A DNA stretch of 64,000 bases, from contig JBCLLY010000001.1 in NCBI GenBank assembly GCA_039738415.1, positions 53,621 through 117,620 on the forward strand. Reading direction: 5' to 3'. The stretch comes from Candidatus Levyibacteriota bacterium. GTDB lineage: Bacteria > Patescibacteriota > Microgenomatia > Levybacterales > GWA1-39-11. Under the pieces are notes generated by a model that had not been told where the DNA came from, ran no database searches, and was given only the letters and a program-made list of their open reading frames with translations. Made by a program: the position numbers and the translations under genes. Below, in pieces: positions 2,671 to 60,187 of the stretch (positions are counted from its first letter, which is position 1; each line of letters begins with the position of its first letter).

Positions 2671-3867
2671 TTATCTCTTTAATGCTTCAATGCCGGGAAG
2701 CGTTCCGTTTTCGATATACTCAAGCATCGCACCTCCACCGGTTGAAATGTGGGTAATATTATCAAGATATTCCTTTTTTGAAATCGCCGCAATAGTATCT
2801 CCACCACCGACAACTGAAATCGCATCATTATTGCGAGCTATTGAATAATATAGAAAATCCGTTCCACGCTTAAACTGCTCGTTTTCAATATATCCTACCG
2901 GACCATTCCAGATAATAGTCCTTGCACCCATTATTATCCTCCCATACTGTGCCATAGTTTCAGGCCCTACATCGAGAATTACATCATCACTTTTTACATT
3001 TTCAACTTTTCTAATACCTCCACCATTCTCATTATTTTTTTTATCTCCCACAGCAACGTCCTCCGGTAAAACTATTTGAGTTCCGTGCCGTTTTGCCTCA
3101 TCTATAATCTTTCTTACTTCTTTTTCCATATTCTTCTCACAAAGACTCTTTCCCACAGGAAATCCTTTTGCCGCAAGAAAAGTATTTGCAATTCCCCCGC
3201 CAAGAATTAATACGTCTGTTATTTTTGTTAATTTATGAAGTAAATGAAATTTTGTAGAAACTTTCGCTCCACCGATGATAGCAACAATCGGGTGCTTAGG
3301 ATTTTTTAAAAGCCCTTCTATAACCTCTATCTCACGCTTCAAAAGAAGTCCTCCATATGAGGGCAAAAGCCCGGCCACACCCACAACTGAAGAACTTTTC
3401 CTGTGACAAACACCAAAAGCATCATTGACATAAATGTCGGAAATGTCTGCAAGTTGCCTAGTAAGTTCTTGTCCCGAGGCGCTCGTTGGATCTTCCTCGC
3501 CTTTATAAAATCTGATATTTTCCAAAAATAAAATCTCCCCGTTTTTCTGATTTTCAAGCTGTTTTTTTCCTTTCTCAGCCAGAAAATCCTCAACTAAAGT
3601 AATTTTTACACCCGGCAGATATTCGCGAAGTCTTTTTACCACAACCCCCAGAGTGTGTTTTTTATCACGCTTTTTCGGTCTATCCAAATGTGCTACCAGA
3701 ATAAGCTTATTGTGTTTGAATAGTTTTTCAATAGTAGGAACGCCCTGTCGTATACGTTCATCGTCAGCAATTTTAAATTTTGGAGTTAAGGTTACATTAA
3801 AATCCACACGCAAAAGAATTTTTTTATTCTTAATCTTCTCGTTATCTATAAATTTAATACTTTCCAT
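2671..3867 (-). CDS. pgk: phosphoglycerate kinase
   Basis: 398 aa with canonical PGK motifs (RVDFNVP-like N-terminus, GGGASLE-like GGGAMLEY, C-terminal hinge). Length typical. Confidence 0.9.
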   Translation of the reverse strand: MESIKFIDNEKIKNKKILLRVDFNVTLTPKFKIADDERIRQGVPTIEKLFKHNKLILVAHLDRPKKRDKKHTLGVVVKRLREYLPGVKITLVEDFLAEKGKKQLENQKNGEILFLENIRFYKGEEDPTSASGQELTRQLADISDIYVNDAFGVCHRKSSSVVGVAGLLPSYGGLLLKREIEVIEGLLKNPKHPIVAIIGGAKVSTKFHLLHKLTKITDVLILGGGIANTFLAAKGFPVGKSLCEKNMEKEVRKIIDEAKRHGTQIVLPEDVAVGDKKNNENGGGIRKVENVKSDDVILDVGPETMAQYGRIIMGARTIIWNGPVGYIENEQFKRGTDFLYYSIARNNDAISVVGGGDTIAAISKKEYLDNITHISTGGGAMLEYIENGTLPGIEALKR

Positions 3868-4858: not shown

Positions 4859-6199
4859 TTATGCGATATACTTGCGGACAGTATGAGCAGTGCCTGCTAT
4901 ATTAAAACTTTCAAACAGAAATGCCAACTTCCTTCCTAAAGCCTCTCTTATTTTCTCTCTATCATTTTCAGATAAACTCCAGCAATCTTTTTTGAATGGA
5001 CCAACTGATTTTTTACGCATTTTATAAACAAACTGAGTATCATTCCAACCATCTTCGCGCTCGTCTGTACAGTTTTCCATAGTCCACTGATGCATTTTTT
5101 CCCGTAGAGAGCTAGGCAAATTATCAATCATAATATTCATAAATTCTGTCGCGAGGTGAACTTCTACCGTATCGTTTTGTACAAATTGTGTGAACATTTT
5201 TTCAGGTAAGGTTGACGCACCATGTTGAACCGAACCCGCAATTTTATATTTTTCCCGAGCAACACGACTTATATCTTTTAGAACGTTAAAGTCTATCGGC
5301 ACTTCGATTACTTTTCCGTTTTCATCAGGAATTCCTCCATGTGAAGTACCCGTCTGGACGCTTACTTTTGTAATCCCCGAAGTATCTCTGCCGATTATGT
5401 CTAAGTACCCTTCCATAAATGCCTCGAAATCCTCAACTGAACTATTTTTACCTCCTATATGTCCAATTTCCCCACCTATTGCGACAGTTACTCCGGGAGG
5501 CTGAATACCTCTAATATATTTGGTCAACTCGGCAGTCATTTCAAAATTTACTTTTTGCTGCTGTAAAAGTTCTTCTTTTTCTAAATCAACCAGCGTCGAT
5601 GCATCTATATCGATATTATAAAATTTCGCCATTAAAGAATCTTTTATCAAAAGCTTTATACTGTCAATTTCTTCCTGCGGATTAGTTTTAAATTTATCTT
5701 CTTTAAATTGGAAATGGTCTCCTTGGATAAAAACAGGACCGTTAAATCCTGCTTTTATCGCACCTGCCAAAACTGAAGCTGAAAACTCGTCAGGGTTTTG
5801 GTCACAATATTTCATTTCAGACCGGGCAATTTCAAAAATAAATGCGCCCGCCTCTATTTTTTGAGCCTGCTCAAATATGACTCTTGAAAAATCGTAATTC
5901 ATCATTCTAATATTCATAGCTGGAACGCTAAAACCATTAACTTCCCCATCACCAATCGCTTTATATAAAGGGTATATTGAAGCGGAAGCAATACCAACCG
6001 CAGAGGCAATTTTACGTATAAAAATTTGTGCCTCATGTCTTAACGATGAGTCCTGAGAAAGCGCTGATGTGTAGGCAAGTCTATCAATTCCATCAGCGCG
6101 TAACTTTTGCTCATCACAAACTTTAACAGAATTGTCCTGCTGCAGTGTCAAAAAGGTTGATATAAAAGAAGAGAGCTCCTGACTGCTATTTAGTACCAT
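4859..6199 (-). CDS. fba: class II (metal-dependent) ketose-bisphosphate aldolase family, likely fructose-bisphosphate aldolase (long form)
   Basis: Pattern GGEIGHIGG ... SHGG ... QHGAST parallels the class-II FBA ELGCTGGEEDG / VHGVY / FHGGSG blocks. Contiguous with pgk and fbp. Confidence 0.55.
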   Translation of the reverse strand: MVLNSSQELSSFISTFLTLQQDNSVKVCDEQKLRADGIDRLAYTSALSQDSSLRHEAQIFIRKIASAVGIASASIYPLYKAIGDGEVNGFSVPAMNIRMMNYDFSRVIFEQAQKIEAGAFIFEIARSEMKYCDQNPDEFSASVLAGAIKAGFNGPVFIQGDHFQFKEDKFKTNPQEEIDSIKLLIKDSLMAKFYNIDIDASTLVDLEKEELLQQQKVNFEMTAELTKYIRGIQPPGVTVAIGGEIGHIGGKNSSVEDFEAFMEGYLDIIGRDTSGITKVSVQTGTSHGGIPDENGKVIEVPIDFNVLKDISRVAREKYKIAGSVQHGASTLPEKMFTQFVQNDTVEVHLATEFMNIMIDNLPSSLREKMHQWTMENCTDEREDGWNDTQFVYKMRKKSVGPFKKDCWSLSENDREKIREALGRKLAFLFESFNIAGTAHTVRKYIA

Positions 6200-6641: not shown

Positions 6642-7367
6642 CTAGTAACTTACAAGTTTTACAATATCAGCGTCTTTTCTTAATTTCTCTATCCATGTTG
6701 TATATTGAGTTTGAAGTTTTTGCTGTTTTAACTGCTCTCTGAGCTGATTTCTTGTTTCCTCTTCGTTTTCAGCATTTGCCAAAAGGTCAGGATTTGCGCT
6801 AACAAATTCGTTAAATTCCTCGTCACTTACTTTCGTATTTTCGCTAAGCATTTTTTCAACTACAATCTGAATTCTTAGCTCTTGCGTAAATTCCTCTGAA
6901 GTTAATCCTTGAGCTTCTAATATCTGCTGGAAATTCTCTTCATTTCCACTACTTACCTGCTTAATAATTTCTTTTCTCTTAGTATCAACTTCTTCCTGTG
7001 TTGCGCTCAAGTTTTGCTTTCGTGCTTCCTGAAGAATTAATTTGCGGTCAACTAATCTAGTTATAACCTCTGCGCCGTGCTGTTTTTCTAATTCTCCAAT
7101 AATCGCAATCCTAGATACAGGCTCTCCATTTACAAGTGCTGCTATAAATAATCCTCTATTTATAAATAGAACAATTCCCAGTAATACCACACAAACTATT
7201 CCAATTAGAATATATCTTGTCTTTTTGGGAAGTACTTCTAATTTAAAAGGATTTAACCGAAACTTATCTCCTGCTTTAGAGAGGATTGGTACTAAAGACT
7301 TTGCTGCTGTTTTTATAACAGTGCTTGTTTTTTTTGCAGAACCTGTCGTTTTCTTTGCTGTAGCCAT
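6642..7367 (-). CDS. membrane-anchored SurA-N-like chaperone/PPIase-family protein
   Basis: N-terminal TM helix followed by coiled-coil-rich SurA_N-like region; 241 aa. Confidence 0.35.
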   Translation of the reverse strand: MATAKKTTGSAKKTSTVIKTAAKSLVPILSKAGDKFRLNPFKLEVLPKKTRYILIGIVCVVLLGIVLFINRGLFIAALVNGEPVSRIAIIGELEKQHGAEVITRLVDRKLILQEARKQNLSATQEEVDTKRKEIIKQVSSGNEENFQQILEAQGLTSEEFTQELRIQIVVEKMLSENTKVSDEEFNEFVSANPDLLANAENEEETRNQLREQLKQQKLQTQYTTWIEKLRKDADIVKLVSY

Positions 7368-13531: not shown

Positions 13532-14206
13532 ATGAGCGCAGAATTTTTTTTCCAACACCACCCCCCTGTCCCTGAACTAAAACTCGCTATTGAGTCAAAC
13601 ATAAGAGAACAAGGCTCTAAAGACGAACCGGTAATTTATCTCGCGAAAAAACTTGCAGAATTTGCCGAAGAAGGATTACATACAGTAAATAATAGATTAG
13701 CTAATCAATATAAATATCTCCATCCCCATAAATTTAGAGATACCCTTTTTGCAATAACAAAGCTAGATAATGCTTATATTATTTTTTCAAATACAATTGT
13801 ATCGTTAGATGATGCTTTTAAGACGGGTAAATTTAATAATGCAGAATTTGAAAGAAGGATAAGAAAAGCATATGCAGGAACACCTTTTCGTTTTGAGGAT
13901 ATTGGTCTGCCACCTGTTGAGGAAATAAGTTCTGAATTTCTTGATACACAAAAATTAATGAGGGAAAAGGATCCAACATTCACCACATTCTTGCAAAATC
14001 CCCGCTGGCTTCCTGCTGGTCATCGACAAAGGCTTGAGGATATGGGAATATTGGATTTTTTCGCAAGACAAGGAATAATAGAGAGATGGAACAGCACTGC
14101 TATGAGTGCAGTCAATCTTTGCTCCGTACTACCTGAAAATGAATCTCTTGGGTTAGACTATAAACCAGATGAAGAATATATAGTGCAATTACTTAGAAAT
14201 TTTTAA
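13532..14206 (+). CDS. hypothetical protein
   Basis: 224-aa ORF; no family recognised. Confidence 0.35.
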   Translation: MSAEFFFQHHPPVPELKLAIESNIREQGSKDEPVIYLAKKLAEFAEEGLHTVNNRLANQYKYLHPHKFRDTLFAITKLDNAYIIFSNTIVSLDDAFKTGKFNNAEFERRIRKAYAGTPFRFEDIGLPPVEEISSEFLDTQKLMREKDPTFTTFLQNPRWLPAGHRQRLEDMGILDFFARQGIIERWNSTAMSAVNLCSVLPENESLGLDYKPDEEYIVQLLRNF

Positions 14207-14452
14207 AACACCTAACACCCTCTTATACAAATACACCAGTAGTAAAATTATCAGAATTCCAAATATAGTATAAAAGTATGACAGATAATTATCCTTTAAC
14301 CTCCATAAGCTTGAAGAAACGAATAATTTTGCAAACTTATCAAAATAGAAAAATACGATAGGATGAAGCGCAAAAAGAGCCAGGCCGGTTCATCAGGAAA
14401 ATTAACAGTTTTTACAGTTGTTCTTGTGGATGTTAATGTAATTACAGTCAGA

Positions 14453-15184
14453 TTATATCGCTTTTCCAGTAAATTTTACTTTTTTCGCAAATTTAAAGCT
14501 TCTTTCAATCCCCTCAAGGATGGCTTGTTTTTGCTCAGTAGAATAATCTGTATTTTTATTCACTCTTTCTGAAAGTCCTTGAGAATACTCTTCAAATCCA
14601 TCCTCACCGTTATTCAGGTAATACGCAAAACTTAATCGGGCTAGAGGATGAAAGTGTAGCACAATGCCAGCGTCAGTCCACGTAACTCCCTTACCCTCCA
14701 ACCATTCTTTTATTTCAGTGTTCAATGCTGTTTTTTGAGTGGGCGAAATTTCTGGCTCGGCTGGAAGTAACTCAAAATCCCCTCTTCTTGTTTTTGCAAG
14801 GGCAAAAGCAAAGCCAATTTTATATCCGTCTTGATAATGATTCAACGGACTTTTACCGAGATGTTTGTACTCGTCACTTTTAGGAACATTTAACCTCATG
14901 CCATCGGAAAGTCCTTCGATGCCGGAAGTGCCTTCAACTTTTGGATCTTGCACTACTATATGCATAAAACTTTCGTGAATACCAATCTGGTCAGGTTGGG
15001 TAATTCCAATTTCAGCAAGTCTCTTTACAACCGAATTCATGTAGCCCATGATGTATGCCGTTGCTATTTCCGGTGATGTTATTCCTCTTACTGCATCAAC
15101 CACAATCGGTTTACCCGCCTCTGCTCGGTGCACACCTTGTTCATATCTATGAAGCATTTTTCCAGCAAAATTACCTCTTTCCAT
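14453..15184 (-). CDS. hypothetical protein
   Basis: 243-aa ORF; no family recognised. GC-rich structured element lies in its 5' leader region. Confidence 0.35.
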   Translation of the reverse strand: MERGNFAGKMLHRYEQGVHRAEAGKPIVVDAVRGITSPEIATAYIMGYMNSVVKRLAEIGITQPDQIGIHESFMHIVVQDPKVEGTSGIEGLSDGMRLNVPKSDEYKHLGKSPLNHYQDGYKIGFAFALAKTRRGDFELLPAEPEISPTQKTALNTEIKEWLEGKGVTWTDAGIVLHFHPLARLSFAYYLNNGEDGFEEYSQGLSERVNKNTDYSTEQKQAILEGIERSFKFAKKVKFTGKAI

Positions 15185-15235
15185 GACGGTATTATATAAT
15201 AATTATCAGCTAAAGCATACATTATGTAAATAAAC

Positions 15236-15540
15236 ATTTTTATATGTCATGAGCGGCTGGATGGCTCTGCTGCGCCCGCTCATTCGAGTCTGAGCCTGAG
15301 GGCTTCGGCCGTGAGCTCAGCCGAATCGGCTCTTCCCTCAGAGTCGAAGATCTGCGGAGGGAGTCTGTCGAAGGGTTAGGACTTATTATTTAACGGAACA
15401 AGCGATAACTTTTAAGTAAACCAAGTCGTTTCCAACAGCGCTGTCATCGCGAGGCTACGAAGTAGACGGGGCGGTCTCATGAGATTGCTTTGTTACACTC
15501 CCTCCAAAGGCGGGCACAGCAGGGTAAACTTCTCATCCAT
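15236..15540. ncRNA. GC-rich highly structured element of unknown identity (candidate ncRNA, leader or REP cluster)
   Basis: Nested perfect stems: ATGAGCGG...CCGCTCAT; CTGAG-GGCUUCGGCC-GUGAG-CTCAG with a UUCG tetraloop; AGCCGAAUCGGCU; GAGTCTGAG...CTCAGAGTC. No ORF. RNase P P4 (AGGAAAGUCCGGGC) and the tmRNA tRNA-like end are not found. Confidence 0.3.
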
Positions 15541-15554
15541 TCAGCTTTATATTT

Positions 15555-15585
15555 AAAAAAACCAGACAAAAGTCTGGCTTTTTTA
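15555..15585. terminator. bidirectional intrinsic terminator (ACCAGAC-aaaa-GTCTGGC flanked by A6/T6 runs)
   Basis: aaaaaaaccagacaaaagtctggctttttt. Confidence 0.55.
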
Positions 15586-15589
15586 AATG

Positions 15590-15660
15590 CAGGGCCGGAT
15601 GGAATCGAACCATCTTCAAAAGTTTTGGAGACTTCTATTCTACCGGTAAACTACGGCCCT
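15590..15660 (-). tRNA. tRNA-Trp (anticodon CCA)
   Basis: Minus-strand fold: acceptor AGGGCCG/CGGCCCT, anticodon stem GAAGT/ACTTT with loop CUCCAAA, T-arm GATGG-TTCGATT-CCATC. D-stem is AU/GU-rich. Confidence 0.7.
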
Positions 15661-15791
15661 AAGGTTTTAAAGTACTGCTATACATTATATTTCATCTCTT
15701 ACCTCAAGTAAATCAAAAGTCCATACAATAACACCCGGCAGTTCTACATATCCTACAGAGACCCTACATACCCTATCATTTTTAATCTTGT

Positions 15792-15815
15792 GTATCATAT
15801 ATTAATATATAATAC
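15792..15815. promoter_or_regulatory. 24-bp palindrome GTATCATATATTAATATATAATAC (1 mismatch copy of the recurring operator-like palindrome)
   Basis: Seen at 4 sites (15792, 16254, 60106, 62456). Confidence 0.4.
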
Positions 15816-15855
15816 AATACCCTCAAATACCAAACAACATTCACTAAGCAGTAAA

Positions 15856-16248
15856 TTACGGCTTCATTCTACCCGAGGCAGCGCTAAGAGAATATGAGGC
15901 AAAGTCAACAAGAACTTTTTTTAACTCCTGCATTATTTTATCTTCATTTATTTTATTACGAGCAATTTCAAAACCCCTAGGTCGTAGGTTTAAAAATAGC
16001 TGCATCCTGTTTATGGTTATCTTTGTAACTCCTAGTGCTTCTGAAATCGCAGCATCATCAATCCCTTCTTGCAAGAGTGTTATAATCGCCAAACGCTTGG
16101 CAAGCATTATGCGTTCAGTTTCTGATAGTATTGAAAAGAGAAATTCTTTAGTTTCATTATTATTTAACTTCCCCAGAACCATTGCAAATACTTGTAAAAT
16201 TTCCTTCTTCGTCCTGGGGTCAAGTTCTCGTGGTGATAAATGCGGCAT
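15856..16248 (-). CDS. TrpR-like (YerC/YecD family) DNA-binding protein
   Basis: Helix-turn-helix region ...AKRLAIITLLQEGIDDAAISEALGVTKITINRMQ... typical of the TrpR-related family. Start placed at ATG (MPHLSP...) because the TTG at 16284 would translate the palindrome. Confidence 0.55.
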   Translation of the reverse strand: MPHLSPRELDPRTKKEILQVFAMVLGKLNNNETKEFLFSILSETERIMLAKRLAIITLLQEGIDDAAISEALGVTKITINRMQLFLNLRPRGFEIARNKINEDKIMQELKKVLVDFASYSLSAASGRMKP

Positions 16249-16253
16249 ATTTC

Positions 16254-16275
16254 TATCATATATTAATATATGATA
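16254..16275. promoter_or_regulatory. perfect palindrome TATCATATATTAATATATGATA immediately upstream of the TrpR-like gene start (candidate operator)
   Basis: Perfect 22-bp inverted repeat 6 bp from the ATG. Confidence 0.45.
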
Positions 16276-16737
16276 TATCGTCAAGCTACTTTAAGTAAAC
16301 AATTATGGAAGAATAGCAATGTACTTAAATGTACTTAAATGTGCTTATAAGAGAATCTCTCCTTGTCTTCCATAAGCCATATATAGAACAAGGTCTTTAA
16401 CTTTCTAAAAATTCGCGTTTTAATATTAAAGACGAGGCGAAAACCAAAATAAAAATTAAGCAGTTTATGATTAAATCTACCCCAACCTTTCTATTGGAAA
16501 ATCTTCAACTACTCGTTTGTGAATTATATATCGATATATAATTCACTGATATAAAAGGCTAATTTGAATATTGACACTCTGGTTGAACACTATTTAAAAG
16601 CTAAAAATCTGCTCTACCACCGGCAGCTTTTATGGAATATGAGGCTAATCTCACTAACATGTTTTTTATTTCTCTCATTGCCTGATCCTGATTTATTTTA
16701 GACATAGGCAGTTCAATTTTGCTATGATATAACCTAA

Positions 16738-17406
16738 GTGGAAAAAGTAAAAAAGCATATCAAGGAAAAACAGCTCACTGTCTCAAGGCACTGGAAATCC
16801 CTCCTGATTTTTGGTGTTGTATTTTTCACTATATTTATAATTTTTACCTTCATGGTTAGAGCAAATATGCTAACTGCTTTTGACTTTGATGCAACAGTAA
16901 GACTTCAAGACGATATTCCACTAAGATTTGACTCCTTCTTTTCAACGATTTCCATTCTCGGACGGTTTGAGTACACTTTTGGGGCATTTGTATTTGCTTT
17001 ACTATTTAGAAGACGAATTTTAGGCATAATCCCCTTCTTCTTATTTGGATTCGCGCACGTAATTGAGTTAATCGGAAAAACTATTTTAGAACATCCGGGA
17101 CCACCCCGTATGTTTTTACGCTCTCAATTCGGCGATTTCCCTGGACTTTATGTGTTTACAAATGGGTCTTATCCATCGGGTCATTCTCTACGGATAGTAT
17201 TTCTATCAATCGTATTTACTTACTTTATATTTAATTTTAAAAGACTTCCAAAACATATTAGGTTTGCGCTTTTTGCGCTTATCTTCGCGGTATTTTTTAT
17301 AATGCTCATATCCCGTGTAAGCTTGGGCGAACACTGGACAACCGATGTTATAGGGGGGTCACTTCTGGGTGCTTCTTTTGCCTTCTTAGCGCTAATTTTT
17401 CTTTAA
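16738..17406 (+). CDS. PAP2 family membrane phosphatase
   Basis: Multiple TM helices plus PAP2 motif SYPSGHS and a later SRxxxxxHxxxD-like block. Confidence 0.6.
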   Translation: MEKVKKHIKEKQLTVSRHWKSLLIFGVVFFTIFIIFTFMVRANMLTAFDFDATVRLQDDIPLRFDSFFSTISILGRFEYTFGAFVFALLFRRRILGIIPFFLFGFAHVIELIGKTILEHPGPPRMFLRSQFGDFPGLYVFTNGSYPSGHSLRIVFLSIVFTYFIFNFKRLPKHIRFALFALIFAVFFIMLISRVSLGEHWTTDVIGGSLLGASFAFLALIFL

Positions 17407-17415
17407 AATAGAGGG

Positions 17416-17589
17416 TTACTTCAGCTTATCTTCTTCCTTGTGCGCCGTCTTTTTTTTGCAAGTACGACAGTACTTTACCAATTGAAGCTTTTCAGGTGTA
17501 TTTATCTTATTTCTACTAGTAATGTAATTGCGTCGTTTACAAACTTTACAATCAAGCCCTAATTTTAGTCTTGTACCTTTTTTTGCCAT
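17416..17589 (-). CDS. rpmG: 50S ribosomal protein L33
   Basis: 57-aa translation MAKKGTRLKLGLDCKVCKRRNYITSRNKINTPEKLQLVKYCRTCKKKTAHKEEDKLK with two CxxC pairs. Not in the ORF track because it is under 60 aa. Confidence 0.8.
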   Translation of the reverse strand: MAKKGTRLKLGLDCKVCKRRNYITSRNKINTPEKLQLVKYCRTCKKKTAHKEEDKLK

Positions 17590-17671
17590 GAGGGTAATTA
17601 TAAATTATAAACTTTAAATTAGCAATATATTTGAAGGTATTTAATGTCAGTTAATCCGAGATAATCTTGAA

Positions 17672-17760
17672 TCCTAAATCTTAGGTCTTAAGTCTTAGGT
17701 CTCAAGTCTTAGGTCTTAAGTCTTAGGTCTCAAGTCTCAGGTCTTAAGTCTTAGGTCTTG
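17672..17760. repeat. tandem repeat of about 14-bp unit (AGTCTTAGGTCTYA)
   Basis: cttaggtcttaagtcttaggtctcaagtcttaggtcttaag... Related copy at 43600-43625 in reverse orientation. Confidence 0.8.
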
Positions 17761-17783
17761 AGCATTACACTATTTGAGCCTTC

Positions 17784-17804
17784 GGTCCCGCTTAGCGGGA
17801 CGAC
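17784..17804. repeat. recurrent hairpin GGTCCCGCTTAGCGGGACGAC (copy 1 of at least 7)
   Basis: Other copies at 21897, 29627, 38578 (TTT-loop variant), 38804, 38861 and 56952. Confidence 0.7.
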
Positions 17805-17844
17805 CTAGTTCTTATCCCAGTCGTTTCTTGTCGCGCAAAAAATG

Positions 17845-17916
17845 AGCCCAAAGGGGGAATCGGACCCCCGACCTAGTTCTTACCAAGAACTCGCTCTACC
17901 ACTGAGCCATTTGGGC
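17845..17916 (-). tRNA. tRNA-Thr (anticodon GGT)
   Basis: Cloverleaf: acceptor GCCCAAA, D-arm GCTC-AGTGGTA-GAGC, anticodon stem AGTTC/GAACT with loop UUGGUAA, T-arm GGGGG-TCCGATT-CCCCC. Confidence 0.75.
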
Positions 17917-17924
17917 ATACGCGC

Positions 17925-18045
17925 GACTTAGAACGACGGGATCCCGTACATCTAAGCCAATTCTATCAAATTGGCAAGATGGTACTGGGGCCAAGAACTC
18001 GCTCGGACCCTGTCCGCCTCTGGCGGAACTGAGCCATGCCGGCAA
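17925..18045 (-). pseudogene. degenerate tRNA-Thr-like fragment carrying a CCGCCAGAGGCGG hairpin insertion
   Basis: GCCGGCATGGCTCAGTT + CCGCCAGAGGCGG + ...GAGCGAGTTCTTGG shares D-arm/anticodon-stem sequence with the adjacent tRNA-Thr(GGT) but cannot fold as a tRNA. Confidence 0.4.
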
Positions 18046-18161
18046 CACTAGGCTATTTTATCAATAAGAATTACTAAAAACTAGACCTTGAATATATACT
18101 TTACGGATAGATTGGCTTGAAGGTAAACATATATTCAGGTAAAATATAGTTTGTGCTGCGA

Positions 18162-18231
18162 TGGCGGATCACCGCCCTAGCGGGACAAGGTGGTCAATCG
18201 CATCCCGACGTTACGTCGGGGCGCCCGTTTG
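18162..18231 (+). pseudogene. 5' portion of a degenerate tRNA-Tyr-like gene (acceptor and D-arm intact, anticodon arm replaced by TCCCGACGTTACGTCGGGG); ends in 42-bp direct repeat DR1 (18190-18231)
   Basis: GCTGCGATGGCGGA...GTGGTCAATCGCA...CGCCCGTTTG matches tRNA-Tyr(GTA) at 18485 in acceptor, D-loop and variable-arm segments. Confidence 0.45.
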
Positions 18232-20302: not shown

Positions 20303-20578
20303 ATGGATAATTTTTACAACGTAAATCAGGCAGCCTATATCATGAAGGTCCACCCTCTAACTATCAGGAGGTATATCCGGGAGGGCAAGCTAAAGGCTGT
20401 AAAGCTGGGAGGAAATGTAAGAATAAAAGAACGTGATCTTCAATCATTTATGAAAGATTTTGAGCCGAGACAACAGGCAGACACCTTATCATTTAGAAGA
20501 ATTATTCAGCAGAAAGAATTTACAACCGCAGACCCATTCCTCCGACTTAAGGGGCGTGCGGCTACTGTGGAACTTTAA
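20303..20578 (+). CDS. excisionase-family helix-turn-helix DNA-binding protein
   Basis: VNQAAYIMKVHPLTIRRYIREGKLKAVKLGGNVRIKERDL matches the MerR/Xis-type HTH_17 pattern. Confidence 0.6.
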   Translation: MDNFYNVNQAAYIMKVHPLTIRRYIREGKLKAVKLGGNVRIKERDLQSFMKDFEPRQQADTLSFRRIIQQKEFTTADPFLRLKGRAATVEL

Positions 20579-20579
20579 C

Positions 20580-20667
20580 CATGAATTATGAATAATGAAG
20601 TAAGAAGCATGAAGTAGGAATTATGAAGCATGAAGCAGGAAGCATGAAGTATGAATAATGAAGCAGG
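20580..20667. repeat. heptanucleotide tandem array (CATGAAG/TATGAAT units)
   Basis: It fills the whole intergenic spacer and runs into the first codons of the next gene. Confidence 0.8.
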
Positions 20668-21040
20668 GAAGATAAAAAATTTTACCGATCTAAATGCATG
20701 GAAATATAGCCATAGTTTGGTTTTAGAAATTTATGAAATTACCAAGATTTTTCCTAAAGAAGAGCAATTTGGACTCACCAATCAAATAAGAAGAGCAGTC
20801 GTATCAATAAGTTCAAATATTGCTGAGGGATTTAGCAGAACTTCCTATAAAGATAAGTCTCATTTCTATTCAATGGCGTTAGGTTCTTTAACAGAGGTTC
20901 AAAACCAACTTATGATTGCGCGTGATTTAGGATACTTTTCAGTAGAAAAGTTCAATGAGTTAATAAAGGTCAGCATTACGGTAAGTAAACTTTTAAATGG
21001 ACTGCTTAAAAAATCAAAAACCATGATTCGTGACTCATGA
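20651..21040 (+). CDS. four-helix-bundle protein copy 2
   Basis: NIAEGFSRTSYKDKSHFYSMALGSLTEVQNQL signature. Confidence 0.75.
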   Translation: MNNEAGKIKNFTDLNAWKYSHSLVLEIYEITKIFPKEEQFGLTNQIRRAVVSISSNIAEGFSRTSYKDKSHFYSMALGSLTEVQNQLMIARDLGYFSVEKFNELIKVSITVSKLLNGLLKKSKTMIRDS

Positions 21041-21078: not shown

Positions 21079-21501
21079 ATGGCACTATCTAAAAAAGTAA
21101 TACTTGCCCCCGACTCTATCTATGCGTACATAGACCGTGTGTCTGAAAAACACCAGCAGGCGGTAGCATTTTTCCGATATTTTTCACAAGAGCATTACCG
21201 GCTCTTCATTGATTGCGTAAGTCTAAACAAGGTGTACGAGGACATATATCTTAAAATGAGCCAGGATTTGGCAAAGGATTTCATAAAGATTATAAGTGTC
21301 TCAGATATTAATATAGTCTACCCTGATGAAGGAGAAACAAAGGCAGCAATAAAGGCTTTGATTAATTACCGTACGCTTGATTTAACTTTCTCCCAAGCCA
21401 TTCTTTCAGTTGTAGCAAATAGAAGAAGCATTAATCAGGTGGTTACATTCTCTTATTTGCCTCCATTATTTGGTCTGCAAACGTTCTATTTACCGATATA
21501 G
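21079..21501 (+). CDS. hypothetical protein
   Basis: 140-aa ORF flanked by heptamer arrays on both sides. Confidence 0.3.
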   Translation: MALSKKVILAPDSIYAYIDRVSEKHQQAVAFFRYFSQEHYRLFIDCVSLNKVYEDIYLKMSQDLAKDFIKIISVSDINIVYPDEGETKAAIKALINYRTLDLTFSQAILSVVANRRSINQVVTFSYLPPLFGLQTFYLPI

Positions 21502-21507
21502 AAAGAA

Positions 21508-21633
21508 GAATGCTTCATTCTTCATACTTCATACTTCCTGATTCATGCTTCATTCTTCATACTTCATACTTCCTGATTCATGCTTCATACTTCATGCTTC
21601 CTGCTTCCTGATTCATACTTCATGCTATATATC
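21508..21633. repeat. heptanucleotide tandem array (ATGCTTC/ATACTTC/CTGATTC units; reverse complement of the 20580 array)
   Basis: About 18 units. Confidence 0.85.
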
Positions 21634-21809
21634 AAAAGGTTAATTAAGATATCAATATGTATCGTAATAATGCTAGTTTTGTCAGCAACCCCCGCACCCA
21701 CGGGACTTATCGATCGGGGAATTGGGTGCGGGGCAAAAAAACCACAACTAATTATCTAATTCAATTAGAGGATTTTGAAATGCTATTTATTTTGCTATAA
21801 TTACTTATC

Positions 21810-21881: not shown

Positions 21882-21888
21882 CAACAAT

Positions 21889-21944
21889 GTAGAGCATCCC
21901 GCTAAGCGGGACGGGTCGCGAGTTCGAATCTCGCCTCAGGCTCA
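21889..21944 (+). pseudogene. tRNA-like 3' fragment (D-stem 3' half, CCCGCTAAGCGGG hairpin as anticodon arm with TAA triplet, T-arm GCGAG-TTCGAAT-CTCGC, acceptor 3' strand, no 5' half)
   Basis: Read directly; lacks a 5' acceptor partner. Confidence 0.4.
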
Positions 21945-22082
21945 AATTTTGGCAAGCACGACTTGTACTGGGATAAACAGTCCTTCGACAAGCTCAGGAT
22001 TAGAAACAGGTCTAGGGCTTGCCCCGTATAGCCGCCACCGTGAGGCAAAGACGTAGACTTTGCGAACGGGAAGGTTTATGCG

Positions 22083-22107
22083 GGGTTCGAATCCCTAAGA
22101 CGGCTCA
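22083..22107 (+). repeat. 25-bp direct repeat of the tRNA-Thr(TGT) 3' end (GGGTTCGAATCCCTAAGACGGCTCA), about 200 bp downstream of the gene
   Basis: Identical to 21859-21883. Confidence 0.8.
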
Positions 22108-22141
22108 TAAAATTTTCTGCTAAATGGTACTGAAATTCAAA

Positions 22142-22374: not shown

Positions 22375-22405
22375 TTGACATGAGGTGGGGGGGGGAGTGT
22401 TTAAT
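22375..22405 (+). promoter_or_regulatory. sigma70-like promoter TTGACA-19bp-TTTAAT with a G9 homopolymer (22387-22395) in the spacer
   Basis: The paralogous promoter at 23641 has G5 and a 17-bp spacer. Confidence 0.5.
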
Positions 22406-22414
22406 ATATATTAT

Positions 22415-23527
22415 ATGAGAGTTTTTCTGCCTAAAAGATCAAAGAAATCAATTTCGGTCATAGGGTTGATCGTAGTATTAATAAACCTTATGGTATTACC
22501 TCTTTTTGTAAGTCAAGTTGATGCCGGAACTTTTACCAGCCGTACAGTAACCATCTCTGACTCACGGGCAGGAAACACCGGCACAACGTATGATTTTGCC
22601 TTTACCGTTGTCGCAACCACAGCAATCAAGCAGTGGAACATTAAGTTTTGTACTGTTACAGGAGCCTACGATGACGCTTGCACAACACCAACCGGAATTG
22701 TAACAACCGGCGCAGCCATCGGATCAGACAACGTAACCGGCTCCGGCAGAACTAACACGTTTGGAGGAAACGGTGTTTTACAAACAGTTGTTACCACTCC
22801 TTCTACCCAAAGCCCGACAGGGGTTACTGTTTCTTACACCGGAATCACAAACCCAACAACAGCCGATACCACCTTCTTTGCCCGTATCATTACATATTCA
22901 GATCCGGGAACAACAGAGATTGACAGTGGGACAGTTGCCGCTGCCATTTTAACCTCCACCTCAATTGCCGTAACTGCCGCCATTGACTCAGCGCTTACTT
23001 TTACTGTGGCAGCTGTCAATAGCGGAGGAACCGTCAATGGAGCAACCACCAATATTACCACCACTGCTATCCTCATTCCTTTTGGGACGCTTTCTTCCGG
23101 TTCAACCAAAATTGCCGCTCATGACTTGACAGTGGAAACAAATGCTTCTGGCGGATACACGACCACTGTCAAGGCAACCGCTACTCCACCTTTAGTTAAT
23201 GGCTCAAATAATATTGATGTCTTTACCGGTGCTAATTCAAATCCAACAATTTGGAGTTCACCGGGTGGTACTGCCAACTCTGTTAATACCGGATTCTTTG
23301 GGTATACCACCAATGATGCGACTCTAGGCACAGGCACAGCCGACAGATTTACAGATACGGGTAATGAGTGGGCCGGAACTACCACCTCTCCTTTAGAGGT
23401 TGCCTTTTCCGCAACCGGTGCTTCTTCAGAGACAACAAGGGTAGGCTGGCAAGCTGAGGTTAACAGCATCCAAGCCGCAGGATCATATACCGGAACTGTT
23501 ATTTTAACGACTACGCCAACGTATTAA
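22415..23527 (+). CDS. Thr/Gly-rich secreted surface protein, tandem paralog A (signal peptide; C-terminal ...GSYTGTVILTTTPTY)
   Basis: Start set at ATG MRVFLPKRSKK. The track start GTG 22385 would translate the G tract. About 95% identical to paralog B. Confidence 0.6.
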   Translation: MRVFLPKRSKKSISVIGLIVVLINLMVLPLFVSQVDAGTFTSRTVTISDSRAGNTGTTYDFAFTVVATTAIKQWNIKFCTVTGAYDDACTTPTGIVTTGAAIGSDNVTGSGRTNTFGGNGVLQTVVTTPSTQSPTGVTVSYTGITNPTTADTTFFARIITYSDPGTTEIDSGTVAAAILTSTSIAVTAAIDSALTFTVAAVNSGGTVNGATTNITTTAILIPFGTLSSGSTKIAAHDLTVETNASGGYTTTVKATATPPLVNGSNNIDVFTGANSNPTIWSSPGGTANSVNTGFFGYTTNDATLGTGTADRFTDTGNEWAGTTTSPLEVAFSATGASSETTRVGWQAEVNSIQAAGSYTGTVILTTTPTY

Positions 23528-23640: not shown

Positions 23641-23669
23641 TTGACATGGAGTGAGGGGGAGTGTTTAAT
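23641..23669 (+). promoter_or_regulatory. sigma70-like promoter TTGACA-17bp-TTTAAT with a G5 tract
   Basis: Duplicated with gene B; the same architecture is seen at 49382-49410. Confidence 0.5.
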
Positions 23670-23678
23670 ATATACTAT

Positions 23679-24791
23679 ATGAGAGTTTTTCTGCCTAAAA
23701 GATCAAAGAAATCAATTTTGGCCATAGGGTTGATGGTAGTATTAATAAACCTTATGGTATTACCTCTTTTTGTAGGTAAAGCCAATGCCGACACCCTCAC
23801 AACCCGCAATCTAACCATCTCTGACTCACGGGCAGGAAACACCGGCACAACGTATGATTTTGCCTTTACCGTTGTCGCAACCACAGGAATCAAGCAGTGG
23901 AATATTAAGTTCTGTACTGCTGCGGGAGCCTACGCTGACGCTTGCACAACACCAACCGGAATTGTAACAACCGGCGCAGCCATCGGATCAGACAACGTAA
24001 CCGGCTCCGGCAGAACTAACACGTTTGGAGGAAACGGTGTTTTACAAACAGTTGTTACCACTCCTTCTACCCAAAGCCCGACAGAGGTTACTGTTTCTTA
24101 CACCGGAATCACAAACCCAACAACAACGGATACCACCTTCTTTGCCCGTATCATTACATATTCAGATCCGGGAACAACAGAGATTGACAGTGGGACAGTT
24201 GCCGCTGCCATTCTCACCACCACCTCAATAGCCGTAACTGCCGCCGTTGACCCAGCGCTTACCTTTACTGTAGCTGCTGTCAATTCCGGAACCGTCAATG
24301 GAGCAACCATCAATGTGACGACTTCAACTGCCGTCCTTATTCCTTTTGGGACGCTTTCTTCCGGTTCAACCAAAATTGCCGCTCATGACTTGACAGTGGA
24401 AACAAATGCTTCTGGCGGATACACGACTACTGTCAAGGCAACCGCTACTCCACCTTTAGTTGATGGCTCAAATAATATTGATGTCTTTACCGGTGCTAAT
24501 TCAAATCCAACAATTTGGAGTTCACCGGGTGGTACTGCCAACTCTGTTAATACCGGATTCTTTGGGTATACCACCAATGATGCGACTCTAGGCACAGGCA
24601 CAGCCGACAGATTTACAGATACGGGTAATGAGTGGGCCGGAACTACCACCTCTCCTTTAGAGGTTGCCTTTTCCGCAACCGGTGTTTCTTCAGAGATAAC
24701 AAGGGTAGGCTGGCAGGCTGAGGTCAACAGCATCCAAGCCCCAGGATCATATACCGGAACTGTTATTTTAACGACTACGCCAACATATTAA
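23679..24791 (+). CDS. Thr/Gly-rich secreted surface protein, tandem paralog B
   Basis: 370 aa; tandem duplication unit about 1266 bp. Confidence 0.6.
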   Translation: MRVFLPKRSKKSILAIGLMVVLINLMVLPLFVGKANADTLTTRNLTISDSRAGNTGTTYDFAFTVVATTGIKQWNIKFCTAAGAYADACTTPTGIVTTGAAIGSDNVTGSGRTNTFGGNGVLQTVVTTPSTQSPTEVTVSYTGITNPTTTDTTFFARIITYSDPGTTEIDSGTVAAAILTTTSIAVTAAVDPALTFTVAAVNSGTVNGATINVTTSTAVLIPFGTLSSGSTKIAAHDLTVETNASGGYTTTVKATATPPLVDGSNNIDVFTGANSNPTIWSSPGGTANSVNTGFFGYTTNDATLGTGTADRFTDTGNEWAGTTTSPLEVAFSATGVSSEITRVGWQAEVNSIQAPGSYTGTVILTTTPTY

Positions 24792-38640: not shown

Positions 38641-38803
38641 TCCACCCCCCTAAGCACAGCAAATGCACTTATTCGAGTGAATTTATGGAAATATTCTACC
38701 ACAAAAGAGGCAAATAGTCAGATATACCTCCGAAGTGTATCAGGTAGGACACATCGGGATAAATTGAAATTGTAAAATTAAATTGAGCCAAAAGGTCCCG
38801 CTA

Positions 38804-38881
38804 AGCGGGACGACTTACTCTTTATCCCAGTACAAATCGTGCTTACCCATGTGAGCCAACGGTCCCGCTAAGCGGGACGAC
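38804..38881. repeat. two tandem copies of GGTCCCGCTAAGCGGGACGACTT(A/G)CTCTTTA
   Basis: 38804-38824 and 38861-38881. Confidence 0.7.
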
Positions 38882-38909
38882 TTGCTCTTTACCTGCCCGC
38901 CAATGCTTG

Positions 38910-38982: not shown

Positions 38983-39182
38983 ATAGGCGAATGCAGGCAG
39001 GCGAAAGCGTTACCCCGCCTGCAACGCCCTGCTTGCAGTGGCGGGCAGGTCTACCAGCTGTCCGATGAGTGATTAATATCGCTATCGGACTCCGATCTCG
39101 CGCATCGGAGAGCTACATCGGCACAGACTAAATTATAGCAAAGAAAATTGCTTTTTATATGTAGTTTAAGATAACTTTAGAT

Positions 39183-46468: not shown

Positions 46469-46570
46469 TTAACTATATCCCAATACTACTTTTATGTATC
46501 ATTTTTAGCTTGTTTATATTCACTATATCACTTCGATTGCATGATGGCAATCGATGATGGTATATGTCAA

Positions 46571-46703
46571 ATGATGAAGACTGAATGATGAATCATGAAT
46601 AATGGATCATGAATCATGAATACTGAATGATGAATCATGAATAATGAATCATGAATACTGAATAATGGATACTCTATACTGAATACTGGATACTGAAATG
46701 AAA
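46571..46703. repeat. heptamer tandem array (TGAATCA/TGAATAA/TGAATAC units)
   Basis: Same family as the arrays at 20580, 21508, 48974, 52066 and 58255. Confidence 0.8.
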
Positions 46704-46819
46704 TGCCGGAAGTTAGATTTTTGAAGTGAGAGATGAAAAGTGTGATATAATAAATATATACTTGAAACTTCTCTAGAAAGCACTTGATTCCTGAAATTAT
46801 TTCCTAGATACTAATTAAT

Positions 46820-48091: not shown

Positions 48092-48946
48092 ATGAAAAAA
48101 ATCCTGTTTTATATATTTTCTGTGGCTTTGGTTTTTACGAATAATACTTCTTTTGCCCAAACACTTCTCCCCGAACACGCGCAGTCCGAACCGGTCATAG
48201 TCAAAGCAACAATTGGAGAATTCTATCTCAATATAACGGCCTACCAGTCTCCTAACGCATCTATCGTAATAGAAACTGTAAGTAGCATATTTCTCGCCTC
48301 CACAACCGCAGATGGAAACGGATACTTCGGATTTTCCAACATCTTAATTACGCAGGATTTTCCGGGATTTTGTTTTAGAGCAATAGATTTTAGAAGAATT
48401 GGAGAATCCGAATCATGCGTAGAAATTAAGGAGATAATAACCGAGGATAAGAAGTACTCAGATATATTTCTTCCTCCTACGATAGGGCTGTCGAAAAAAT
48501 TAATCCTTGCCGGAGAGAACGCTCAGATATTTGGATATTCGATGCCCTATGCAGCAGTTGCTATAAATTTTGAAAAAGAAACCATAACTCTTCAGGCAGA
48601 TGAAACAGGATACTATGAATACATTTTTGAAAATGCACCGGCGGGAGTTTATGCTTTTTCGTCTAGGGCAAAACTGCAAGAAGTTGACTCGCTTGAACCC
48701 AAAAACAAAGCAATACTTGAGGTAATAACCCCTCAGGAGCAGATAAGACAAGACATCACGGGATTTTTGGAAGATGTAGAGAAAAAATTTCCGGGAGCGC
48801 TTATTTTTGCTGCTCTTCTAATTATTTTGCTAGCGCTTCTTATAGCACTTATTTGGAAAACAAAGCCTAGATTTATTTACGCATTCTTTGACAAATTCAA
48901 GAAAAAATACCCAATGCACCACGACTACTTTTTGTTCAAACAATAG
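48092..48946 (+). CDS. secreted protein with C-terminal TM anchor (hypothetical)
   Basis: Signal peptide and C-terminal hydrophobic segment ALIFAALLIILLALLIALIW. Confidence 0.4.
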   Translation: MKKILFYIFSVALVFTNNTSFAQTLLPEHAQSEPVIVKATIGEFYLNITAYQSPNASIVIETVSSIFLASTTADGNGYFGFSNILITQDFPGFCFRAIDFRRIGESESCVEIKEIITEDKKYSDIFLPPTIGLSKKLILAGENAQIFGYSMPYAAVAINFEKETITLQADETGYYEYIFENAPAGVYAFSSRAKLQEVDSLEPKNKAILEVITPQEQIRQDITGFLEDVEKKFPGALIFAALLIILLALLIALIWKTKPRFIYAFFDKFKKKYPMHHDYFLFKQ

Positions 48947-48973
48947 GTTGGTAGAAAGTAGCATGTAGTATGG

Positions 48974-49165
48974 AGTATTCAGTATTCAGTATTCAGTATT
49001 CAGTATTCAGTATTTAGTATTCAGTATCCATGATTCATTATTCATGATTCATTATTCATTATTCAGTCTTCAGTATTCATGATTCATTATTCATGATTCA
49101 TGATTCATTATTCAGTATTCATGATTCATTATTCATGATTCAGTCTTCACCATCCACCATCTACA
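48974..49165. repeat. heptamer tandem array (ATTCAGT/ATTCATG/ATTCATT), about 27 units
   Basis: Read directly. Confidence 0.85.
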
Positions 49166-49231
49166 AGTCTCTCTTCCCTCCGCCAGCTGGCGGATTGTAG
49201 CTAGTATCAGTTATAAGTTAATTTCACCGTT

Positions 49232-51081: not shown

Positions 51082-52062
51082 ATGAAAAGGTCTGTCCAAA
51101 CGAAACACTTTCTAAAAATCAGCCTACCGGCTATTCTTATTTCTTTTTTTCTAGTCGCAATAGCACAGATTGCTCTCGCTCAAACCACTCCAACCAGAAG
51201 CATCGTAATCTCCCCGCCTACAATTGAGCATACTCTAAATCCTGGAGAAAGAGCTGAGGGGATTTTGAAGGTCACAAACAGCGGAAATACAGATCTTGCT
51301 TTCGGAGCAAATATACACGATTTTATAGTTGAGGATAAAAACGGAACACCTGTCATTCTTACTACAGATAAATTATCTGAAAAATATTCCGGCGCATCGT
51401 GGATAGCTGTTACTCCAAAAACATTTACTGTTCCCGCCGGAACAACAAAAGAGATCAACTATTATCTTCAAGTTCCCCTCGATGCTGCTCCCGGAGGACG
51501 TTATGCTGCCGCAATTTATGAACCAATTGACATAATTAGAGTCGAGGGTACCGGCGCCGGAGTTAATACACAATTAGGGTCACTTTTTTACATAACTGTC
51601 GCAGGACCGGTGACGGAAAGCGCGCAAGTCGAGCTTTTTTCAGCTCCTCCATTCTCGGAATATCCACCGGTAAAGATTTTTACAGAAATAAGCAATAACA
51701 GCGATGTGCATATAAAACCAAGTGGCAATATCGTAATTAAAAATATGTTTGGTCAGGAAATTGCCAGACAAACTTTTTCCGGAGGAAATATATTTCCAGA
51801 GGCAAATCTAAGATATACAAATGAATTCTTTTCAGACTCAAATTTTAAAATAGGCCGCTATACTGCTGAGCTTTCCGCGATATACGGACAGGATAACAAT
51901 CTACCTCTTTTTGCAACACTTAGCTTCATAATTTTCCCCTGGAAAGTCGCACTGGTACTAGTACTAATCGCGTCAATCTCAGTAGTCGCATTCTTACTAT
52001 TCAAAAGGAAGAAGAACAAAAAAGACACAAAACCATCTGAAACCCCAACGCCACGGGGATAG
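51082..52062 (+). CDS. DUF916/CscA-like cell-surface protein (paralog)
   Basis: ...ASWIAVTP...GGRYAAAIY..., C-terminal TM plus KRKKNKK tail. Confidence 0.45.
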   Translation: MKRSVQTKHFLKISLPAILISFFLVAIAQIALAQTTPTRSIVISPPTIEHTLNPGERAEGILKVTNSGNTDLAFGANIHDFIVEDKNGTPVILTTDKLSEKYSGASWIAVTPKTFTVPAGTTKEINYYLQVPLDAAPGGRYAAAIYEPIDIIRVEGTGAGVNTQLGSLFYITVAGPVTESAQVELFSAPPFSEYPPVKIFTEISNNSDVHIKPSGNIVIKNMFGQEIARQTFSGGNIFPEANLRYTNEFFSDSNFKIGRYTAELSAIYGQDNNLPLFATLSFIIFPWKVALVLVLIASISVVAFLLFKRKKNKKDTKPSETPTPRG

Positions 52063-52065
52063 GTA

Positions 52066-52318
52066 AGTATTCAGTATTCAGTATTCAGTATTCAGTATTC
52101 ATGATTCAGTATTCATGATTCATTATTCAGTCTTAAGTATTCAGTATTCAGTATTCAGTCATCAGTCTTCAGTCTTCAGTATTCATGATTCATGATTCAT
52201 GATTCAGTCTTCAGTATTCATGATTCATGATTCATGATTCAGTCTTCAGTATTCATGATTCATTATTCATGATTCATTATTCATTATTCATGATTCATTA
52301 TTCAGTATTGAGTCTTAA
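52066..52318. repeat. heptamer tandem array, about 36 units
   Basis: Read directly. Confidence 0.85.
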
Positions 52319-52444
52319 GGGTATTCAGAAGTTAAGCAAACAATTTTCAATTTGAAATTTAAAATTTTAAATCAATTTAAAATGCTTAAAAATTAAAATA
52401 AAACTGTCATTGTGAGTGTTTCCCTTGTCATGCTAGAACTATTT

Positions 52445-56725: not shown

Positions 56726-57026
56726 TCATAAAACCAAAAAAACTCATGGCAAACGGAGTCGAAGAAATCTTCATTTTTCGAGGAAAGTCCGATAACTATT
56801 TCATAATGTCATTCTGGCGTAGACCAGAATCTATTTCCAAAACTGAACTCTATTCCCTTTTACTTATTCTCTATTACCTATCTGGGGTGTGGTGCCCCCG
56901 CCTTGTCCTTTCGGACGCGGCGGGGACGGATTTGAAAACGTGCCCTCCTTCGTCCCGCTAAGCGGGACTATGGCGGGCTAAGCAGGTCATGCGGCATTTG
57001 CCCCGCTTTCCGAGGCGTGCTTGGCT

Positions 57027-57242: not shown

Positions 57243-57361
57243 GGTATTTCCTCCTTCTAGCCTTTCCAGGCACTTGTACCCTTCGGCGAGCCTCAGGGTT
57301 TGGGTGTGAATCTAGGCTTTTTAGGGGTTCAACCCATAATAGGGGTTGAACCCCTATATTG

Positions 57362-60129: not shown

Positions 60130-60187
60130 TATATGATACAGAATAACTAACAACTACTGCTTAGCCAATTTGTTATAATAAATTATT

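Follow-up and report, generated by a model that had tools for sequence, protein, structure and literature searches.

The described systems closest to the locus treated here are the bacterial interspersed mosaic elements (BIMEs) of enterobacteria, which are made of repetitive extragenic palindromic (REP) units, the Rhizobium-specific intergenic mosaic elements (RIMEs), and palindromic elements resembling miniature inverted-repeat transposable elements (MITEs) that insert into other sequences, such as the Correia elements of Neisseria and the Rickettsia palindromic elements. We know of no description of BIME-, RIME- or MITE-like elements in the lineage of Candidatus Levyibacteriota. Within a 64,000-nt stretch of contig JBCLLY010000001.1 of this organism (assembly GCA_039738415.1; the whole stretch is referred to below as the window), a structured, GC-rich element of ∼300 nt that lacks open reading frames (ORFs) occupies positions 15249–15546 of the plus strand. 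It lies beside a tRNA-Trp(cca) gene (15589–15660, minus strand; found by both Rfam and ARAGORN) that converges on it. A related strain, represented by the metagenome-assembled contig JBCLLZ010000021.1 (L018; in full L042) and called the sister strain here, carries the same sequences in pieces. We read the element, at about even chances, as a strain-variable nested mosaic of palindromic modules of BIME, RIME or MITE character that sits beside tRNA-Trp.

Like BIMEs and RIMEs, which are extragenic, free of ORFs, up to a few hundred nucleotides long and variable between strains, the element is composed of several palindromic modules in both orientations and lies between transcription units next to a terminator, as such elements do where units converge or diverge. 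Palindromic units in alternating orientation are present as nested palindromes in the window and as separate modules, facing both ways, in the sister strain. Unlike BIMEs and RIMEs, it is a single copy in 64 kb, its modules are longer than the 35-nt REP units, and no RAYT was found among the ORFs scanned; the hairpin that it shares with many taxa also differs from REP sequences, which are usually species-specific. With MITE-like elements it has in common terminal inverted arms, strong predicted RNA hairpins and nested or intragenic insertion, a 36-nt hairpin that is present or absent between strains, and a possible 7-bp direct repeat. In contrast to MITEs, no family of near-identical full-length copies was found and no autonomous parent is known. 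The 7-bp sequence, TTTATAT, occurs at 15239–15245 and again at 15546–15552 and could represent a flanking direct repeat, although it consists of A and T only, may be due to chance, and stands 10 nt from the 5′ arm. No empty site alignable to the element was found in a relative.

Across the element GC content is 0.49–0.51 in 200-nt segments and up to 0.64 in 120-nt segments, against a mean of 0.40 for the window and ∼0.33 in the flanks. The longest stop-free frame spans ∼49 codons and has no usable start, and no start-initiated frame exceeds 22 codons, so that a gene caller would not have recorded any. The minimum free energy (MFE) of 15240–15590 is −137.6 kcal/mol on the plus strand (z = −6.1; none of 100 dinucleotide shuffles was as good) and −126.7 kcal/mol on the minus strand (z = −5.4). 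In the predicted plus-strand fold, three helices enclose the rest, namely P1 (15255–15264 with 15537–15546, 10 bp), P2 (15265–15272 with 15517–15524, 8 bp) and P2b (15274–15279 with 15510–15515, 6 bp). Their 5′ strands form the outer palindrome arm (15255–15279), which is 100% identical in the sister strain, and their 3′ strands occupy 15510–15546; as terminal inverted repeats the two arms pair over 24 bp, interrupted by one mismatch and by a bulge of 12 nt (UAAACUUCUCAU) at 15525–15536. Inside them lies a 5′ hairpin domain of ∼70 nt (15280–15350, plus strand) with competing helices such as CUGAGGG/CCCUCAG and with a GGC-UUCG-GCC hairpin at 15301–15310, where the MFE structure prefers a competing pairing. 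It is followed by the perfect 9-bp helix H4, formed by GGAGGGAGU at 15356–15364 and ACUCCCUCC at 15497–15505, whose strands bracket a 107-nt core module, M3 (15390–15496, plus strand). Hairpins in the region of M3 are AU-rich at 15380–15427 and G-U-rich at 15465–15494. The element is succeeded by a bidirectional intrinsic terminator (15553–15585; an A-run, a stem at 15562–15577, an AAAA loop and a T-run) that would end a plus-strand transcript of the element and the tRNA-Trp transcript alike, and the loop of which is flipped between strains, AAAA in the window and TTTT in the sister strain. An earlier note on this DNA, made from the letters alone, had pointed to GC content far above the average without an ORF, to nested helices that include a UUCG tetraloop hairpin, and to a strong bidirectional terminator 3′ of the element on the plus strand; all of these observations hold.

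The sister strain shows the element to be modular. Its contig is 98.8% identical to window positions 14026–15387 and 95% identical to 15642–18168, and 15185–15350, which adjoins the gene for a 243-aa protein (14453–15184), is identical throughout. The 5′ half of the element is found at 6864–7004 of the sister contig, where similarity stops after GGGTTAGAAC, and the 5′ hairpin domain remains on the side of the 243-aa gene. The 3′ strands and the terminator (window 15509–15593) lie beside tRNA-Trp at 3518–3602, joined there to another interior. Between the two halves are 3.26 kb of DNA that contain the first 98 residues of a major facilitator superfamily transporter, a ferredoxin fragment, three ORFs without a Pfam match and a BrnT/CopG-like toxin-antitoxin pair. 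The core (window 15356–15516, including M3) is present in this strain as a separate, inverted copy at 5320–5480 with 97.5% identity, and its closing helix is CCUGCC/GGCAGG instead of CUGCUG/CAGCAG. At the syntenic place the sister strain keeps CUCCCUCC of the H4 3′ strand, beside an insertion of a 36-nt hairpin, CCCGCCAACAACGCTTTGCGTAGCAATGCGGGCTGG (CCCGCC...GCGGGCTGG), which on side-by-side reading lies between GCCCGCC and TTTGGAGGGAG and is absent from the window. An inverted arm, GGAGGGAG-CGCA-GTCGAAGGG, is located at 3641–3662 of the sister contig on the opposite strand; because of it, the H4 5′ strand and the GUCGAAGGG that follows can be recognized as one arm of a longer palindrome, the other arm of which survives in the sister strain and only partly in the window.

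The distribution of the element among relatives was examined at 28 loci reached through homologues of the 243-aa protein and of the TrpR-like gene that lies across tRNA-Trp from the element. By nhmmer, only loci of the same population carry the element, and within the window it finds only itself. A second metagenome-assembled genome (MAG), GCA_039731645.1 (L019), has an identical copy at 3142–3443, and the contig of L020 breaks inside the element at ∼15513. The 243-aa protein has no relative in genome_contigs, and a look-up of its exact sequence gave no record; its relatives elsewhere are at most 55% identical. At the loci of these relatives PAP2 and tRNA-Trp are still close by, in many cases with RNase HII as well, yet there is no nhmmer match to the element and no room for it. 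Relatives of the TrpR-like gene are 56–75% identical, the two longer loci among them (L015 and L016) are without the element, and five short contigs of relatives stop 68–177 nt past this gene, which suggests that the region beyond it is hard to assemble. Among GTDB species representatives, scanning for the motif gave chance matches alone (Prochlorococcus, Tepidibacter), and the element had no BLAST match in phages or plasmids. As far as the data reach, the element thus appears confined to one population. All further copies are either identical or rearranged, so that covariation analysis had no basis. The earlier note had held that a lack of conservation or covariation at homologous loci would make the region merely a REP cluster; the unit is unconserved, relatives lack it and the sister strain has its modules apart, and by that reasoning a repeat mosaic is favoured. 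One relative (L001) has a different GC-rich hairpin cluster of ∼220 nt at 800–1010, between PAP2 and tRNA-Trp (plus strand, z = −2.95), for which a permissive scan gave no informative Rfam family and which has no similarity to the element in the window.

One junction of the element bears a hairpin motif, (CCC)TGAGCYTGTCGAAG(GGG), that is present in many unrelated metagenome, viral and plasmid sequences. The copy in the window, GGGAGTCTGTCGAAGGGTTAGGACTTATTAT at 15359–15389 on the plus strand, is a diverged form of the widely dispersed hairpin CTGAGYCTGTCGAAG(GGTTAGAAC), and it is here that similarity between strains, and between paralogous copies, starts and stops. Its 24-nt stretch TGTCGAAGGGTTAGGACTTATTAT occurs once in the window. 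In the sister strain three full variants lie within 1.6 kb in both orientations (5330, plus; 6150 and 6893, minus), and together with the half-motif at 3641–3662 all copies fall within ∼3.3 kb. A scan of JGI metagenomes with TGTCGAWGGGTTAGRACNTAT returned eight loci, six of which share the unforced extension CCCTGAGCCTGTCGAAGGGTTAGAAC; one sister-strain copy (copy C) is identical at 29 of 30 positions to the copies at three of these unrelated loci, and therefore the locus would once have held a canonical copy. The window allele, with AGG in place of the −CT of the sister strain (whose H4 5′ strand reads GGC-UGAGU), creates the perfect H4 helix.

Elsewhere the dispersed motif is intergenic and lies downstream of ordinary genes, for example those for rpoD, katG, a monooxygenase and a TonB-dependent receptor. 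Most matching Sphingobium megaplasmids hold five to eight copies per record (a few have one or two), and copies are also found in Moraxella, Microbacterium and Comamonas plasmids and in IMG/VR contigs, where the 15-nt core CTGAGCYTGTCGAAG is present at more than 120 loci at least; E. coli genomes contained no copy. Pairing was assessed over 136 distinct instances among the matches listed, from contigs of 32–71% GC. At the three positions on either side of the core, pairs form in 116, 107 and 87 of these, with many pair types, and at least three consecutive pairs are formed in 69 of the 136, compared with 22.4 ± 3.5 (maximum 33) when flanks were re-dealt; among the same listed instances, combinations of the G-U type exceed those of the A-C type. 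On these statistics the motif is a small hairpin, read on one strand, in which the stem covaries while the loop stays constant. Its layout is NNN-CTGAGCYTGTCGAAG-N′N′N′; the 11-nt loop (GAGCYUGUCGA) and the C-G/U-A base are invariant and the stem of 3–5 bp covaries. It is often preceded by CCGTTCG and is sometimes arranged as an inverted pair (Moraxella). A canonical example, UCC-CUGAGCUUGUCGAAG-GGA, is located on the minus strand of the window at 21982–21998, beside tRNA-Thr and tRNA fragments. Rfam has no family for the hairpin copies in the window and the focal region, where these were scanned, and a literature search for the motif and its spurious peptide translations yielded nothing relevant. 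The idea that the 5′ domain of the element is built from the same units as the metagenome copies was rejected, as its similarity to sequences upstream of the motif elsewhere is not significant and the motif alone is shared.

In the arrangement that we favour, the modules would have built up in the intergenic gap adjoining tRNA-Trp. The outer inverted-repeat pair P1/P2/P2b would enclose all else, and within it would lie the 70-nt hairpin domain and a second palindrome, with the arms GGAGGGAG-N3-GUCGAAGGG and their complement. The loop of this second palindrome, just after GUCGAAGGG-UUAG, may be a hot spot of insertion and rearrangement with two alleles, occupied by the 107-nt M3 in this strain and by 3.26 kb of foreign DNA in the sister strain. 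The long-range helices would then be palindrome arms parted by later insertions, and selection would not have acted on the fold as a whole. If the plus strand is transcribed, the product would end at the bidirectional terminator and be very stable, and need not have a function of its own. A mosaic of this kind explains the long-range helices, why the element is not conserved outside the population, where contigs break, the inverted core copy and the 36-nt insertion. The modularity, the polymorphism between strains, the dispersed hairpin and the lack of a known family are observed; we infer the order of events, mobility or recombination at the DNA level as their cause, and the absence of an essential RNA function.

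Several observations weigh against the element being such a mosaic. Classical REP/BIME and MITE families are multi-copy, whereas the element occurs once in 64 kb, and Pfam scans of 36 ORFs revealed neither a transposase nor an integrase, RAYT, TnpB or IscB. The sister contig comes from a MAG and could be partly chimeric; its junctions share only 4–9 nt, too little for a k-mer misjoin, and one of them falls a few bases at most from the place where the contig of L020 breaks independently. In the closing helix of the sister-strain core copy a U-A to C-G change keeps the pairing, which suggests selection for it. The plus-strand MFE structure of the 300-nt core contains 15 G-U pairs and only two C-A 1 × 1 mismatches, and its folding energy weakens from −121.0 to −96.7 kcal/mol when it is read as the minus-strand mirror image, a loss of 24 kcal/mol. 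A good terminator stands exactly at the 3′ end of the element, as for an RNA gene, and neither this neat placement nor the fold bias of the plus strand is explained by a palindromic mosaic. If the structure matters as RNA, the fold asymmetry and the 3′ terminator would favour the plus strand.

These features are the substance of the strongest alternative, a lineage-restricted gene for a structured small RNA, transcribed on the plus strand from the AT-rich spacer 15185–15248 and terminated at 15562–15585, with the hairpin modules as functional domains and the sister-strain arrangement as a disrupted or paralogous version. We consider this possible, at appreciably lower probability than a mosaic. 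In its favour are, besides the very strong fold, the strand asymmetry, the terminator and the compensatory change just described, the position of the element as a GC island within an AT-rich genome, its identity in L019, the identity of its 5′ 165 nt in the sister strain, and the strand-specific covariation of the dispersed hairpin. However, the 5′ identity is not significant against a local divergence of 1.2%, no sigma-70-type consensus promoter was found upstream of the element on the plus strand, there is no homologue outside one population to provide covariation support, and in a strain belonging to the same species-level group 3.26 kb of DNA break up the unit. A combined proposition, which we hold to be unlikely, is that the plus strand gives rise to a species-restricted RNA, and that the junction hairpin belongs to an undescribed strand-specific motif that would be recognized by a conserved factor and mark a preferred site of DNA insertion or rearrangement.

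It is improbable, in our estimation, that the element is the scar or recombination site of integrative DNA that targets the tRNA-Trp region, so that it would be a remnant of att-like sequences left by repeated insertion and excision. Three observations would fit such a history. At 3661–3680 of the sister contig, 240 nt downstream of the tRNA, the half-motif runs into 19 nt that reproduce the tRNA-Trp 3′ end exactly (GGATTCCATCCGGCCCTGC); the tRNA-Trp genes of the sister strain and of L015 are interrupted by cassettes with a second tRNA-Trp, in L015 together with a GIY-YIG gene; and contig breaks cluster here. Against it, no integrase was found in the window or among the sister-strain ORFs scanned, on neither strand does the element resemble tRNA-Trp significantly, and the motif has neither the dyad symmetry of a recombinase core nor an integron-type RYYYAAC partner. 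An integron attC site was rejected likewise, as GTTAGGA is there but ends in a base other than Y, no RYYYAAC lies upstream and no integrase was encoded by the ORFs scanned. A tRNA-Trp 3′ half with a giant T-loop insertion was also rejected, local alignment being no better than with shuffled sequences on both strands, as was a TIGR-Tas stem-loop array, there being no regular array and no Nop-domain protein.

The interrupted tRNA-Trp genes are located at L015 4740–5260 and at 3158–3421 of the sister contig. In both, a tRNA-Trp gene of the type seen in the window is broken by an insert with a second, different tRNA-Trp; the insert in L015 has an 81-aa GIY-YIG gene and a flanking direct repeat of ∼44 nt, and the interrupted genes of relatives carry further hairpin insertions in the anticodon loop and the T-loop. 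The insert resembles a mobile cassette that comes with a tRNA to replace the interrupted one.

The earlier note had placed the element in the 5′ leader of the 243-aa gene, and a cis-regulatory leader on the minus strand remains very unlikely. The element does lie upstream of this gene and its minus strand also folds well (z = −5.4), but two sigma-70-like promoter matches for the gene (15250–15221 and 15230–15202, minus strand) intervene between the two and the terminator separates the element from tRNA-Trp, so that the placement is unsupported. No comparable element precedes nine homologues of the protein from other genomes, the minus strand forms the weaker structure, and no riboswitch family matches. 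Among the three options raised in the note, a novel noncoding RNA, a cis-regulatory leader and a BIME-like stack, the leader is thus the least supported and the palindromic mosaic is favoured, although the match to REP/BIME elements is inexact because of the single copy.

The least probable explanation, to which we attach hardly any weight, is a very divergent RNase P RNA, transfer-messenger RNA (tmRNA), signal recognition particle (SRP) RNA or 6S RNA that escapes Rfam. Size, GC content and a position adjacent to a tRNA would suit it, and the RNase P RNAs of some candidate phyla radiation (CPR) bacteria fall below Rfam thresholds (PMC8172020, Lui et al., 2021), for which reason the hallmarks of RNase P RNA were also checked by hand. 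With Rfam 15 at the gathering score, only five tRNAs matched in the window; at E ≤ 10 with relaxed filters, 551 nt around the element, scanned on both strands, gave only chance-level microRNA and small RNA matches to the terminator. RNase P RNA (RF00010/RF00011) matched at neither threshold, SRP RNA, 6S RNA and riboswitch families were unmatched in the scans of the element, and tmRNA was found in the window neither by ARAGORN nor by Rfam. The divergent CPR RNase P RNAs do resemble the element in being ∼300 nt long, GC-rich within a small AT-rich genome and missed by Rfam gathering thresholds (PMC8172020). They differ in that CR-I and CR-V, the conserved regions, are present together with a specificity domain and the pseudoknot topology of P4, all of which the element lacks: neither GAGGAAAGUCC (CR-I) nor ACAGAA..GGCUUA (CR-V) occurs within 15249–15546, all predicted helices are nested with no P2′/P4′/P1′ pseudoknot order, and only ∼120 nt would be left between the P4 strands for a specificity domain. 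The element is also unconserved even within the species group, and a sister strain would not carry an essential RNA in pieces. The element is not a member of any described RNA family. The Rfam/Infernal scan suggested in the earlier note thus assigned no known family, and its impression that this is not RNase P RNA, tmRNA, SRP RNA or a common riboswitch proved correct. Elsewhere in the window, a tract of 1.65 kb (56725–58379) lacks ORFs of at least 100 aa, reaches a GC content of 0.65 and seems to hold small minus-strand ORFs; GAGGAAAGTCCG at 56781–56792 within it resembles the RNase P CR-I motif, and 56650–57450, which includes this sequence, gave no RNase P or other informative Rfam match at E ≤ 10.

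Judging from gene content, this would be a small, AT-rich genome of the CPR type: the window encodes Era, UppS, RNase HII, enzymes of glycolysis and numerous surface proteins for which Pfam has no match, and the 243-aa protein has no Pfam domain. Tandem paralogous ORFs at 22385–23527 (380 aa) and 23661–24791 (376 aa) share blocks of 90–98% DNA identity; the former, the only copy scanned, has no Pfam match. Next to tRNA genes the window has further families of GC-rich hairpins, as well as tRNA fragments that are duplicated and bear insertions, and this too speaks for a mosaic. The hairpin GGTCCCGCTAAGCGGGAC occurs at 17781–17814, 21892–21925, 38791–38824 and 38858–38891, each time just downstream of a tRNA-Thr gene, which suggests a processing or termination signal, and also at 56950–56970. 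Downstream of tRNA-Thr(tgt), 21883–22110 contains the 3′-end fragment of another tRNA and a second tRNA-Thr 3′ half with a 67-nt insertion in its T-loop. Beside tRNA-Thr(cgt), at 38984–39060, a duplicated tRNA piece (TCTACCAGCTG) is parted by a CCCCGCCTGCAACG...GGCGGGCAGG hairpin, and the CCCGCC...GGCGGGCAGG hairpin family is also inserted in the T-loop of the L015 tRNA-Trp gene. A 28-nt palindrome, TGTGTATCATATATTAATATATGATACA, is found around the TrpR-like gene and elsewhere (15789–15816, 16250–16277, 16518–16545, 60113–60140 and 62453–62480) and is probably the operator of the TrpR-like regulator family. Many intergenic tracts consist of degenerate 7-nt tandem repeats (e.g., ATGAATC, TCTTAGG) with 14- or 21-nt periodicity (17651–17767, 20549–20700, 21476–21645, 46520–46740, 48890–49230, 51990–52400 and 58208–58400).

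The dispersed hairpin could be a widespread signal in RNA or single-stranded DNA; it is more intriguing than the element itself and merits a study of its own. For the annotation of AT-rich, small genomes of the CPR kind, a GC-rich, ORF-free, foldable island followed by a terminator is not automatically an RNA gene, since nested palindromic repeats mimic one and only the comparison of sister strains separates the two. Should the element prove to be a small RNA after all, it would add a new structured RNA, ∼300 nt long, to a lineage about which little is known.

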